Shown here: in pieces, positions 11,457 to 54,088 of the stretch | Layout: each line of letters opens with the position of its first letter | Position numbering within the stretch: the stretch's first letter is position 1 | Source: Nitrosopumilaceae archaeon | GTDB lineage: Archaea; Thermoproteota; Nitrososphaeria; Nitrososphaerales; Nitrosopumilaceae | Direction of reading: 5' to 3' | DNA: 64,000 nucleotides | NCBI GenBank assembly: GCA_965214835.1 | Contig: CBDCCK010000002.1 | Location: forward strand, 2,400,001-2,464,000 | The notes under the pieces: generated by a model | Seen by the model: the letters and a program-made list of their open reading frames with translations, nothing else | Told to the model about the DNA's origin: nothing | Databases searched by the model: none | Translations under genes and position numbers: made by a program

Positions 11457-11980
11457 AGGATGTCAAGGGTCGCCACCCCGAAATAGTATCCTGCCGCAGT
11501 CAGCCCCATGCTCCAGGCACAGGAGCCGATGAACGTATAGACTGCAAATTTGGCAAGCCTCATGTTGAGCAGGCCCGCAGGTATGGATACCAGGGAGCGA
11601 ATCCCCGGAATCAGCCTTCCAAACAGCACGGACTTGTCGCCGTATTTTTCAAACCACTCCTGTGCGCGGGTTATCCTTTCCTCCTTTATCCGGATCTTGC
11701 GGGAGTACCTGACGATTGCCTCGCGTCCCAGCTTTAGCGCTATAAAGTATATGATAAACGCCCCCGCCGTGGAGCCGGCGCCGCCTGCCATTCCCGCACC
11801 GGCTATGTGAAGGACGCCCATGTCGTTTTGGAGTATCGTGTATCCTGCCAGCGGAAAGACGGCCTCGCTGGGAATCGGCGGAAAGACGGTCTCGATCAGC
11901 GCTGCCAGAAACACGCCCGGATAGAGGTTGCCTGCCACAAGATCAACGACCCACTGTACAAAGGCATGAATCTCGCTCAA
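11453..11980 (-). CDS. DedA family membrane protein
   Basis: ETVFPPIPSE, FEKYG...GRLIPGIRSLVSIPAG; probable TTG start at 11980. Confidence 0.9.
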   Translation of the reverse strand: MSEIHAFVQWVVDLVAGNLYPGVFLAALIETVFPPIPSEAVFPLAGYTILQNDMGVLHIAGAGMAGGAGSTAGAFIIYFIALKLGREAIVRYSRKIRIKEERITRAQEWFEKYGDKSVLFGRLIPGIRSLVSIPAGLLNMRLAKFAVYTFIGSCAWSMGLTAAGYYFGVATLDIL

Positions 11981-26598: not shown

Positions 26599-26707
26599 CG
26601 CACCCGTGGGATGCAGACAGGCCCGCATCATGAGCGAACCATGGAAGATGCGTTGAACGCAAAACAGAGGGCGCACCCGTGGGATGCAGACAGGCCCGCA
26701 TCATGAG
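26599..26707. repeat. 36-bp exact direct repeat x2 around a 37-bp unique spacer
   Basis: CGCACCCGTGGGATGCAGACAGGCCCGCATCATGAG at 26599-26634 and 26672-26707. Confidence 0.95.
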
Positions 26708-31716: not shown

Positions 31717-32961
31717 CTACGGCGACCTTGTCCCTGCCGCCCCGTCACGGTTCACCAAAAAGCTCTTGAGACCCCAGGCGATCAGCTGGAATACGGCGGG
31801 CGGCAGGTGCGGATTCCCTTCATAGGCATCATAGTTGAAGTCGACTAGGGCAGCCTCCAGTATTTCGCGGTTTTTTGCGATTACAAAGTCCTCGCGTTCT
31901 GATCGCGAGGCCCCCTCGGCCTCCATTTTTTTCAGTCCGGCCCGAATCTCATCTGCCAAGGCAAGAATCCTGCGGCGGGTTGGGTCAAGATGTCCTTTCG
32001 GGTTGATTTTGAAGGCAATGTCGGTGTCCCTGATCACGACCCGGAGGTTTTCGGGCTGCAGATCGTACGGGGGGTCGGATCCTTGCCTGCCAATCCCCTC
32101 CCCTGCACGCGGTTCCTTGTGCTTCTCTAGGCGGTTTAACAGATCAGATCTCATCCTGCCGGCATGTGCTCCCATGTGTCCAAAGTCAGATCCTACTGTA
32201 CCAGCATCCCTTTCCATTCCCTCAAAACCAGCTCCTATCAGGGCGACGTTCTTTTTTAATTTCTCAAACTCGGATCTTACCTTGTCAGCACCCCTTTCTA
32301 TCCCCTCCAAGTCATATTCTATTGTGCCAAAATGAGTTGGTTTTTTGGTGATTTTATGTGGCGTCTTTCCAGATTCCTCGAGCATGGATTGCATCATGTC
32401 GACCTCCTCTACTATTTTCATGAAGATGGATCGTGCCTTGTCAATCCACCCTGCCATTTTCATATACTTTATTCCTGACTCCGCGTAGTCAAATCTTAGC
32501 AGGGTGACTTCTGCCTCTATTCCCTCAAACTCGGATCTTACCTTGTCAGCATCCTTTATCACTTCCCCAAATCTGGATCTCATCAATCCGACAATCTCCG
32601 CCAATTCCCCAAATCTGGATCTTTCTGTATCTGTCTTCTTTTTTAACTCATCAGTCTGGGATCTTACCAGGCCCGCATTCCTCCCCGTTTCCTCAAAACC
32701 AATACTTGCCATGTTAATATGCATCATCATCTCCTCAAAGTCAAATCCTCCAATGCGGTCGTTTCCTCTCATTTTCCTGATCTTGGCTAGTGCCAGACCT
32801 GCCTCCACTTCCATTTTCCTGAGTCCTACTTCCATTTTCTTGAGGCCGGATCTTGCCATGCCTGTCTGCCTCTCCACCTCCTCAATGACTGATTTTATTC
32901 TGTAAGACTTTTTTTCTATTTCCGTTATGAATCCCAGGTCTGATTTCTTGCTTTTTGGCAT
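31717..32961 (-). CDS. Hypothetical coiled-coil protein with 14-residue periodicity
   Basis: 414-aa ORF; repeats such as LEGIERGADKVRSE/FEKLKKNVALIGAG/FEGMERDAGTVGSD. Confidence 0.7.
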   Translation of the reverse strand: MPKSKKSDLGFITEIEKKSYRIKSVIEEVERQTGMARSGLKKMEVGLRKMEVEAGLALAKIRKMRGNDRIGGFDFEEMMMHINMASIGFEETGRNAGLVRSQTDELKKKTDTERSRFGELAEIVGLMRSRFGEVIKDADKVRSEFEGIEAEVTLLRFDYAESGIKYMKMAGWIDKARSIFMKIVEEVDMMQSMLEESGKTPHKITKKPTHFGTIEYDLEGIERGADKVRSEFEKLKKNVALIGAGFEGMERDAGTVGSDFGHMGAHAGRMRSDLLNRLEKHKEPRAGEGIGRQGSDPPYDLQPENLRVVIRDTDIAFKINPKGHLDPTRRRILALADEIRAGLKKMEAEGASRSEREDFVIAKNREILEAALVDFNYDAYEGNPHLPPAVFQLIAWGLKSFLVNRDGAAGTRSP

Positions 32962-44038: not shown

Positions 44039-45377
44039 TGGTGAGGACCCCGCTAGAATAGGAACGCTTTTTTTCGCACACTTTTTGAGTCAGGAGGTCG
44101 AATCACAAATATGACCAAGAAAACATGGAGTACGCAGGACAAGATAGGGATAGTCATGGAGCACATCAACACCAACATCGAGACGGCAGAGCTGTGCCGC
44201 CGCCACAACTGGCCCCTAGGACGTTTTACCAGTGGAGGGAGCGCTTTTTGCAGGCCGGACGCGCCTCACTGTCAGGCAGGGGCCACAAGTCAACAGAGGA
44301 GCGGCAGCAAAAGGAGATCGAGTCGCTCAAGAAAATAGTCGGAGAGTACGCCGTGGCCAATGCGGTATTAAAAAAAACCTTGGAGGCAGGCAAAAGGTGA
44401 TGGCCGCAACCGAGCTGAAGAGCAAGGGATGGAGCACACGCACATCACTGCAGTACAGCGGGGCAACCAGGACTGCACTGTACTACGAGAAGACGCCCAG
44501 AAAGGTGTTGCCTGACAGGCAGACTGTCATGCATGTGGAACGGATTGGTAAGCAGAGGCCTACATACGGCACGCGCCGCATGGTAGCCCAGATAAGACGC
44601 CAGACCGGCGTGCCGACAAACCGCAAAAGGATACAGCAGATATACCGCAAAATAGGCTGGATCACGCCTAAAAAGACCAAAAACGACATAATCCGGGCCG
44701 GTAAAAGGGGCAGGTTCAAGCCCACAGGACCAAACCAACTGTGGGAGACTGACATCACGTACGTCTGGTGTGGCGTTGACGGGTGGTGCTACTGCTTTAA
44801 CGTAATCGATACGTTCACCCGGAAGTGGATAACATACGTATTTGACACGCAGGCCACCGCACAGGTAGCAGTCGAATCGCTGACAAAGGCAGTCTCCACG
44901 ATTTCGGCAGACGAGGCGCGCGGCCTGCTGGTCAGAAGTGACAACGGCGTCCAGTATACGAGCCGCGAATTCAAGGAAAGCATGAAGGCGCTTGGGGTAA
45001 GGTGTGAGTACATCTGGCACAACACGCCCGAGCAGAACGGACATGTCGAGTCATTTCACAAGACTTGTGGTCAGGGCAGCCCCCGGCAAGAGTGGTGGAT
45101 CGAGCAGAACGGACATGTCGAGTCATTTCACAAGACCCTCAAAAAGGAGTACGTCTGGCCGCACGACTTTGCCAGGTTCCAGGATGCAGAAGCCGTCCTG
45201 GCAGAGGCGTTTGCGGACTACAACCAGGACAGGATCCACTCGGCGCTGGGATACCTGACACCAGACGAGTTTGTCCGAAAAACCCAGAAAAGACAGGAGG
45301 AGGTGCCTCAAAAATGAGCGATCAATGTGTGCATAAAATGTTGCCAAAATCGTTCCTACTCATAGGGGTCCACTCCA
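44039..45377 (+). mobile_element. IS3-family element (orfA frameshifted; orfB with a 72-bp in-frame insertion)
   Basis: TG...CA imperfect TIRs; orfA from 44111; A8 slippery site near 44370; orfB WETDITY, SDNGVQY, NGHVESFH, YN..RIHSALGY. Confidence 0.9.
45029..45136. repeat. 36-bp exact duplication around a 36-bp foreign insert inside IS3 orfB
   Basis: CGAGCAGAACGGACATGTCGAGTCATTTCACAAGAC at 45029-45064 and 45101-45136. Confidence 0.95.
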
Positions 45378-45871
45378 CGGATACGGCATATTTGACAACG
45401 CGACTACAGAAAACGCCCTCAAGGTGCTTGACGGGGCCATGCAGAAGCACGGCAGGCCCGCCTCCATAATGACGGACCACGGAAGCCAGTTTTACGCAAA
45501 CGAAAAACAGGGTGCAAAGAGGGGGCACAGCGAGTTCGAGGAGAGCCTAGAGGCCCTAGGCATACGGCAGGTCCTTGCCGGGGTGCGCCACCCGCAGACA
45601 AACGGCAAGGTCGAGAGGCTGCACGGCGAGATACAGCGCAAGCTGCACGAGTTTGAGGATATCATGATGAGAACAAGCGATCCCATGGATCTGTTCATGA
45701 AATGGTACAACTACGACAGGCCCCACATGTCCCTTGACTGGGATAACCAGGAGACGCCGGCGCAGGCATATGAGCGCAAGATGCCCCCTGCGGGCGAAAC
45801 GGTCATAGATGGGCAGACCGGGGAGGAATATCATGTCAGATAGGGGGGTGAACTACTTTTCGGATCCCACA
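45378..45871 (+). mobile_element. IS481-family 3' remnant
   Basis: TDHGSQF, HPQTNGKVERLH, YNYDRPHMSL; end GGGGTGAACTACTTTTCGGATCCCACA. Confidence 0.8.
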
Positions 45872-53981: not shown

Positions 53982-54088
53982 GTGGCAGGGGCGGGGATTC
54001 CGGATGTTTTTGGAAGTCTTTCTTGCATCTCGGGCCTTGGGCGCCTGCGTCATGTGGCAGGGGCGGGGATTCCGGATGTTTTTGGAAG
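53982..54088. repeat. 35-bp exact direct repeat x2 around a 37-bp spacer (36+36 if one terminal mismatch is allowed)
   Basis: GTGGCAGGGGCGGGGATTCCGGATGTTTTTGGAAG at 53982-54016 and 54054-54088. Confidence 0.95.

Follow-up and report, generated by a model that had tools for sequence, protein, structure and literature searches.

Integration of spacers outside CRISPR arrays was reportedly described in 2018 by Nivala, Shipman and Church (Nat Microbiol), who are said to have obtained "neo-CRISPR" units by non-canonical spacer integration with the type I-E system of Escherichia coli. According to the available text of the literature, such off-target events in E. coli are rare and arise under over-production of Cas1-Cas2 with supplied oligonucleotides (PMC7054753), the natural evidence for non-canonical integration, from two other species, is called circumstantial (10.1101/148544), and non-canonical integration in E. 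coli is cited again in PMC9456107. The accessible portions of two further studies report a TTN protospacer-adjacent motif (PAM) and new spacers of predominantly 36 bp for the type I-U/I-G Cas4/1-Cas2 of Geobacter sulfurreducens (PMC6547450), and off-target sites spaced by the repeat length, with G then C preferred, for Pyrococcus furiosus Cas1-Cas2 in vitro (PMC6698737). We analyzed a 64,000-nt stretch (the window) of the chromosome of a Nitrosopumilaceae archaeon, contig CBDCCK010000002.1, here called C2; the window is C2:2400001-2464000, and positions without a prefix are those of the window. Within it, the transposase gene orfB of an insertion sequence (IS) of the IS3 family carries a 36-bp insert between two copies of a 36-bp target duplication. 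We propose that this unit arose by off-target (non-canonical) CRISPR spacer integration by the Cas4/1-Cas2 of the resident type I-G system, a reading to which we assign a probability of about 0.92. The unit and its host element consist of the following features.

45029-45064, plus strand: target duplication copy 1, IS3 orfB coding sequence with the codons for EQNGHVESFHKT, identical at 36/36 positions to 45101-45136
45065-45100, plus strand: 36-bp insert, very probably an off-target CRISPR spacer, a copy of the DNA polymerase II/D (PolD) small-subunit gene segment C2:902180-902215 (minus strand)
45101-45136, plus strand: target duplication copy 2, identical at 36/36 positions to copy 1
44232-45317, plus strand: IS3-family transposase orfB, an open reading frame (ORF) of 361 aa, uninterrupted, with 24 extra in-frame codons
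44125-44400, plus strand: probable orfA of this IS3 copy, in a different frame from orfB with which it overlaps, and matching the N-terminal part of NF033516 at 26.1 bits, below the cut-off
44100-45330, plus strand: the IS3-family element copy, given as the minimum extent common to the other copies, which occur in the genome at 82-97% identity

The duplication copies lie 72 bp apart, start to start, in a unit of 108 bp, and an exact 36-bp direct repeat at such spacing cannot have arisen by chance in 3.2 Mb. The 36 bp between them read TTGTGGTCAGGGCAGCCCCCGGCAAGAGTGGTGGAT, in agreement with an earlier sequence-only reading of this DNA, and the unit is in frame within orfB, the product running ...PEQNGHVESFHKT-CGQGSPRQEWWI-EQNGHVESFHKT-LKKE...; the first base of the duplicated 36-mer is a third codon position. 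Coordinates and reading frame bear out that earlier account of an IS3 motif present in two identical copies around an unrelated 12-codon insert. Its view that the repeat is ordinary transposase coding sequence and no relic CRISPR repeat is upheld by the existence of empty alleles and by the comparison with the native CRISPR repeat, to which the 36-mer matches at only 8/36 and 10/36 positions. It had also dismissed a miniature inverted-repeat transposable element (MITE), rightly so far as the insert lacks both a terminal inverted repeat (TIR; 1 match between its first and last 12 nt) and multiple copies, its sole other match in the genome lying within polD. A canonical array would have at least three cas-related repeats; the duplicated 36-mer has no third copy. 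A segment at 11620-11655 considered as such a copy (repeat family D17) is 67% identical and was set aside as a chance match.

The direction of the event follows from other copies of the element. A genome search with 44100-45330 as the query returned 63 matches. Every other full copy matches query positions 1-965 and then 1002-1231, with a subject overlap of 36 nt between the two matches (C2:2654972-2655937, for example, pairs with 2655902-2656128), so the insert is missing from these copies and the 36-mer is single. Alignment of other IS3 copies, the check that the sequence-only reading had advised, gave the same result: 4/4 (three from the same genome and one from a relative, G002) lack exactly 72 columns and have the 36-mer once, and the event was, as claimed, an insertion into the IS. 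Across 31 genomes searched, including this one, seven gave matches, and nowhere outside the window is the insert covered; the 30 others are different species, so its absence from them gives no date for the event. The claim that it was recent is plausible in view of the identical repeat copies.

The genome has one Cas1 homologue, about 35 kb beyond the insert site at C2:2480012-2481712. It is a Cas4g/Cas1g fusion that matches NF049935 at 754.8 bits (cut-off 560) over its full length (model positions 2-546 of 546), and it heads a locus in which it is followed by Cas2 (32.1 bits, cut-off 24.5), a CRISPR array, a DDE_3 transposase gene, Cas3g (TIGR02621, 630.3 bits, cut-off 400; its HD domain is C-terminal, at residues 674-842), a weakly matching Cas8g2 (100.8 bits, below the cut-off of 125), Cas7g (GSU0053, 140.7 bits, cut-off 38) and Csb2 (GSU0054, 210.7 bits, cut-off 45). 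Judged by its gene content, the system is of type I-G, the Cas4-Cas1 fusion and a Cas3 with C-terminal HD both being present, and the adaptation module, as predicted from its genes, is intact in the same genome as the unit. The main array has 148 identical repeats, each exactly 36 bp, and 147 spacers, of 35 nt (7), 36 nt (45), 37 nt (54), 38 nt (18), 39 nt (16), 40 nt (4) and three odd lengths; this repeat also forms a second array, of 8 copies, at C2:135.8 kb. With a 36-bp repeat and spacers mostly of 36-37 nt, the duplication in orfB equals the resident repeat length and the insert a modal spacer length. The ruler-based integrase that the sequence-only reading had postulated can now be given a name: it is very probably the type I-G Cas4g/Cas1g-Cas2 of this genome, which works with a 36-bp repeat and a spacer peak at 36-37 bp.

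Other observations concern the same locus. The DDE_3 transposase gene (C2:2492980-2494000, minus strand) separates the adaptation genes and array from the effector genes. Native spacer 41 matches a 13-kb contig, C1, at 36/36 positions (C1:6366-6401) inside a gene for a 1270-aa multi-glycosyltransferase, with ...GTTC just upstream. Annotation of C1 lists glycosyltransferases, IS66- and IS110-type transposase genes, a methyltransferase and a LamG surface protein, and includes nothing clearly viral or plasmid-like; in C1 the host's own array may have targeted a variable island or a piece left unplaced.

The insert has a single other match in the genome, a 36-nt match at 35/36 positions to C2:902180-902215 on the minus strand. 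The source gene encodes the PolD small subunit (NF003118, 508.9 bits, cut-off 445) and adjoins an orc1/cdc6 gene (TIGR02928, 352 bits, cut-off 181). Together with a cumulative GC skew that is maximal at 900,499 and two identical 24-nt repeats resembling origin recognition boxes (ORB) at 899,828 and 899,890, the orc1/cdc6 gene points to a probable replication origin about 2 kb from the source. Since the source lies in the host's own polD, 1.54 Mb from the target, the insert is neither foreign, as had been supposed, nor a templated copy of adjacent DNA, the outcome that the sequence-only reading had named as fatal to its case. In the orientation of the insert, the source is flanked by 5' ...CAGTTTG and 3' ATATTG..., and the 5'-TTG beside it fits the published TTN PAM of type I-U/I-G systems; the search for a source and its PAM, suggested earlier, therefore found both.

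Parts of the stretch are contained in seven sequencing runs from two studies, and contigs from four of them (X1, X2, X4 and X6) were compared with it. A 102-nt contig of X1 covers 45035-45136 with 0 differences, taking in 30 nt of copy 1, the entire insert and the entire copy 2, and so shows the filled allele, with the proviso that X1 may be the source sample. Neither X2, X4 nor X6 yielded a contig over the filled junctions, which has no bearing on this locus, and the same holds for one X4 contig that skips from 45028 to 45101, as it may derive from any other IS copy. In all four runs, loose contig ends at 45065 and 45100 run on into the polD flanks, showing that the source locus is present in each.

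We favor spacer integration by Cas4/1-Cas2 because the duplication and insert lengths equal those of native repeats and spacers, the genome has one Cas1 and an adaptation module around it, the non-CRISPR target has empty alleles, the source has a PAM, and units of this kind recur in the chromosome. In the sequence of events that we envisage, the Cas4/Cas1 fusion with Cas2 would capture a 36-bp fragment of the PolD small-subunit gene beside TTG, near the probable origin, and the fragment would bypass the leader-proximal CRISPR repeat and go into the IS3 transposase gene. Both 3'-OH ends of this prespacer would attack the target strands 36 bp apart, the same stagger as on the 36-bp repeat. Provided that TTG is the PAM, it would be the non-PAM 3' end (...GGTGGAT) that joined the plus strand between 45028 and 45029, and the PAM-side 3' end that joined the minus strand 36 bp away, at the original ...CAAGAC/CCTCAA junction (a slash marks the junction). 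Gap repair would then have duplicated the 36 bp on both sides of the insert. The resulting unit has no CRISPR repeat and should yield no CRISPR RNA (crRNA), which would explain how the host tolerates a spacer directed at one of its essential genes. The geometry, the empty alleles, the source, the resident system with its repeat and spacer lengths, and the pattern across the genome are observed; that Cas4/1-Cas2 was the catalyst, in what order the strands were attacked, and that the unit goes unprocessed are what we infer, the catalyst from geometry and co-occurrence.

The recurrence emerged from a scan of C2 for isolated, exact, two-copy direct repeats 30-159 bp apart, of which 144 were kept. 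Their counts by length were 19 at 36 bp, 12 at 37, 4 at 38 and 3 at 39, against 2, 4 and 3 at 33-35 bp and 0 at both 40 and 41. A mismatch-tolerant extension gave 47 candidates with repeats of 33-42 bp and inserts of 30-45 bp, and removal of 8 by eye left 39 single-spacer units. The repeat copies are identical in 34/39, and no unit has a third repeat copy that would mark growth to two spacers (0/39). Unit periods range over 69-76, most commonly 72 (14 units) and 73 (10 units). When a 36-bp duplication is assumed, the median insert length is 37, the same as in the array (Mann-Whitney P = 0.47), and the duplications of 37-39 bp are mostly 36 bp plus chance matches at the boundary (1-3 nt of ambiguity). 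We found no significant sign of in-frame selection, the period being divisible by 3 in 20/39 units versus 42% of native ones (P = 0.16).

Among the candidates left out, four identical copies of a unit with a 42-bp repeat and 37-bp insert in a repeated element (C2:1308256, 1624026, 2343414 and 2692095) may go back to one old stray integration, later multiplied together with the element around it, or may be an internal repeat of unrelated origin. The others were C2:1736693, whose insert is shared with C2:2257330; C2:2212075, in a Gly-Pro-rich coding repeat; C2:558201, with an internally repetitive repeat, which could be a real event; and C2:1966990, a duplicate of C2:1921439 in a duplicated region. 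Two units of the set, apart from that in the IS, lie in the window. One, at 26599-26707 (C2:2426599), has an exact 36-bp duplication and a 37-bp insert for which no source was found in the genome, and overlaps the start of a 169-aa minus-strand ORF; the other, at 53982-54088 (C2:2453982), has a 35-bp exact duplication and a 37-bp insert, 36 nt of which are identical to C2:257419-257454, where the source flank is 5'-TTC. Elsewhere, C2:1301320 and 1301520 are two independent units, with different duplicated sequences, 200 bp apart.

Many of the stray spacers come from the chromosome itself. Thirteen of the 39 inserts match elsewhere on C2 at ≥96% identity over ≥28 nt, and one more matches at 33/38, whereas none of the 147 array spacers matches C2 beyond 17 nt (14/39 versus 0/147, Fisher P = 4 × 10−11). 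This contrast would be expected if array spacers are expressed and self-targeting ones purged, the stray units staying silent for want of a CRISPR repeat. TT stands at -3/-2 of one flank in 8/14 sources (TTC 5, TTG 2, TTT 1) versus a 12% background (P = 7 × 10−5). Four of the 13 sources fall within C2:900193-906409, a 6.2-kb segment that begins in orc1/cdc6 beside the putative origin (post hoc binomial P = 1 × 10−8). The window also holds a source: 31929-31960, in a 414-aa minus-strand ORF, matches the stray spacer at C2:3161274 at 32/32 positions (35/36 overall), with a source flank of 5'-TTC.

Landing sites were analyzed as 28 half-sites, from those 14 units whose duplication is exactly and unambiguously 36 bp. 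At +1, immediately inside the junction, G or C stands in 25/28, G is enriched at -2 (15/28) and -1 (13/28), and GG stands just outside at least one end in 9/14 units versus a 13.6% background (P = 2 × 10−5). The native leader-repeat junction reads ...ACGGG/ATTTCC, and the sites are weakly shifted toward the native leader end plus repeat, with a mean of 14.6/42 identities versus 12.1 at random sites (P = 2 × 10−4). Of the 39 sites, 14 lie within C2:2.159-2.467 Mb, a stretch of 310 kb or 9.6% of the chromosome (post hoc P = 8 × 10−6) that includes the GC-skew minimum (2,358,515) and the window and runs up to the cas locus (2.480 Mb).

These genome-wide data bear directly on other ways in which the unit might have formed. 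A non-CRISPR insertion process that adds about 72 nt each time, as a short copy of self DNA plus a compensating target duplication, would agree with an insert of self DNA, with 72 as the commonest period (14/39 units) and with one unit that, judged against its source, pairs a 38-39-bp duplication with a 34-35-bp insert. We regard such a process as unlikely, given that the period varies over 69-76 with the same spread as native units, the lengths are no different from theirs, the trade-off between repeat and insert is mostly 1-3 nt of boundary ambiguity, and the units with unambiguous boundaries (the IS3 unit and C2:1625426) are 36 + 36. Nor does it predict a duplication as long as the resident repeat, or the TTN enrichment, which points to Cas4. 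Still less probable is a replication error, by template switching or slippage, that would have brought a 36-bp copy of polD into the IS and doubled the 36 bp beside it: the source does adjoin the probable origin at the GC-skew maximum (900,499), where replication activity is high, but the source flanks show no microhomology with the target junctions, source and target are 1.54 Mb apart, and slippage predicts no fixed 36-bp duplication, 36-37-nt insert, set of 39 like cases or TTN flank.

We give next to no credence to an assembly or sequencing artefact, for which the multicopy nature of the IS (63 matches) and the lack of a single contig over the whole 801-bp stretch would speak; the X1 contig agrees with the assembly throughout, and neither a copy of polD within an exact 36-bp duplication nor recurrence at 38 other loci in unique sequence is to be expected of an artefact. 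The repeat-spacer-repeat layout could also suggest the relic of a mini-CRISPR array, or else a very small mobile element whose target-site duplication is long, and we hold this to be just as implausible. The repeat is conserved transposase coding sequence that other copies have once; for an array, it is moreover unrelated to the native repeat and has no third copy, and for a mobile element, the insert has no TIR and occurs elsewhere only as part of a housekeeping gene.

Several observations weigh against integration by Cas4/1-Cas2. The catalyst is deduced from geometry and co-occurrence, and the filled allele appears in contigs of one run only (X1), which is possibly the sample of origin and not independent. 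The insert differs from its source at 1/36 positions (A/G), a difference that could be a later mutation or reflect DNA of a near-identical strain; the relatives are uninformative on this point, being too divergent, with the best 76% identical and 1/4 same-genus genomes having a match. The contig comparison listed no difference at this position, where partial matches may go unscored. In the wider set, 6/14 known sources have no TTN, and comparison with the sources puts the real duplication of a few units at 34-35 or 38-39 bp, so the ruler slips at times. The target in the IS has a likeness to the leader-repeat of 11 or 13 of 42, about background (mean 12.1), and only the set as a whole is shifted toward it. 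With the orientation set by the TTG, the GG/G half-site falls on the spacer side and not on the leader side, and among the 8 TTN events, read by eye, the PAM side and the motif side show no consistent link.

The host element belongs to the IS3 family by both its model match and its two-ORF layout. orfB matches NF033516 at 215.4 bits (cut-off 160) in two stretches, and 44125-44400 is probably orfA, a name that follows from the layout. Domain matches in orfB are to rve, rve_3 and HTH_21, the rve matches being split around residues 259-291: Pfam rve ends at residue 259 and rve_3 begins at 291, and the extra residues, at about 279-302, lie within the integrase-core (rve) region of the transposase. 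The 24 extra codons duplicate what we take, from DDE transposases in general, to be the conserved glutamate motif (NG..E), and on that understanding they probably inactivate this IS3 copy. Directly after it, at 45424-45843, is a second rve-like ORF fragment with the motif ...HPQTNGKVERLHGEIQRKL..., which is probably left over from a different IS.

Most documentation of off-target spacer integration comes from E. coli Cas1-Cas2 in over-production, and this one genome has all the parts: the integrase, an array that sets the 36-bp ruler, an empty allele, a source with a PAM, and 38 sister events. We think it probable that the 39 units form a natural, largely unselected log of type I-G adaptation in an archaeon, in which self-derived stray spacers survive because they are not expressed. 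If so, stray units would show the true origins of prespacers (4/13 sources near the putative origin, and TTN selection) and the sites at which the integrase strays, and off-target integration would be a mutagenic burden that CRISPR adaptation imposes often and continually in nature, an occasional inactivator of ISs and a steady supply of repeat pairs from which arrays could arise. Three matters become directly testable: the fidelity of Cas4/1-Cas2 in vivo, where prespacers come from before selection (self DNA and a hotspot near the origin included), and whether new CRISPR arrays grow from such units or genes and mobile elements are disabled by them. For annotation, repeat-insert-repeat units that match the resident CRISPR lengths should be read as integrase scars, and neither as MITEs nor as degenerate arrays.

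Casposons, which measure kilobases, have TIRs and make short duplications, differ from the present case, where a 36-bp insert has no TIRs and the only Cas1 homologue of the genome is the CRISPR one. According to the accessible text on casposases, which are Cas1 homologues, what is common to both is a Cas1-family integrase, staggered cuts and a target-site duplication (PMC6977970, PMC8464041). For P. furiosus Cas1-Cas2, the available text describes paired sites at repeat spacing, a G/C preference and weak likeness to repeat borders (PMC6698737), as here; those events took place in vitro on plasmids with a 30-bp spacing, whereas ours are products fixed in a genome with a 36-bp spacing. The type I-G systems of G. 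sulfurreducens (PMC6547450) and Methanosarcina barkeri (PMC10274657) share, in the parts available, the Cas4g/Cas1g architecture, the TTN PAM and the predominant 36-bp spacer. In those studies, however, integration was scored at a leader-repeat substrate, and the same parts make no mention of off-target chromosomal events; the G. sulfurreducens system in E. coli took spacers mostly from plasmids (PMC6547450), whereas a third of the stray spacers here come from the chromosome. No account of off-target units arising naturally across a genome, be it with type I-G or in an archaeon, turned up in the literature searched, which did not extend to subscription papers and supplements. The nearest counterpart remains the type I-E system of E. 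coli, which, as far as its available descriptions go, shares with this locus a spacer-sized insert in non-CRISPR DNA, a repeat-length duplication, a resident Cas1-Cas2 and some target bias. It differs in being bacterial and over-produced; here the setting is natural and archaeal, the system has a type I-G Cas4/1 fusion, the duplication is 36 bp long, the source is identified, self-derived and flanked by TTN, and a single chromosome holds 39 units. The kind of event is thus already known from E. coli experiments; the IS3 unit adds a clean natural case from an archaeon, and the genome-wide set to which it belongs is the more interesting object.

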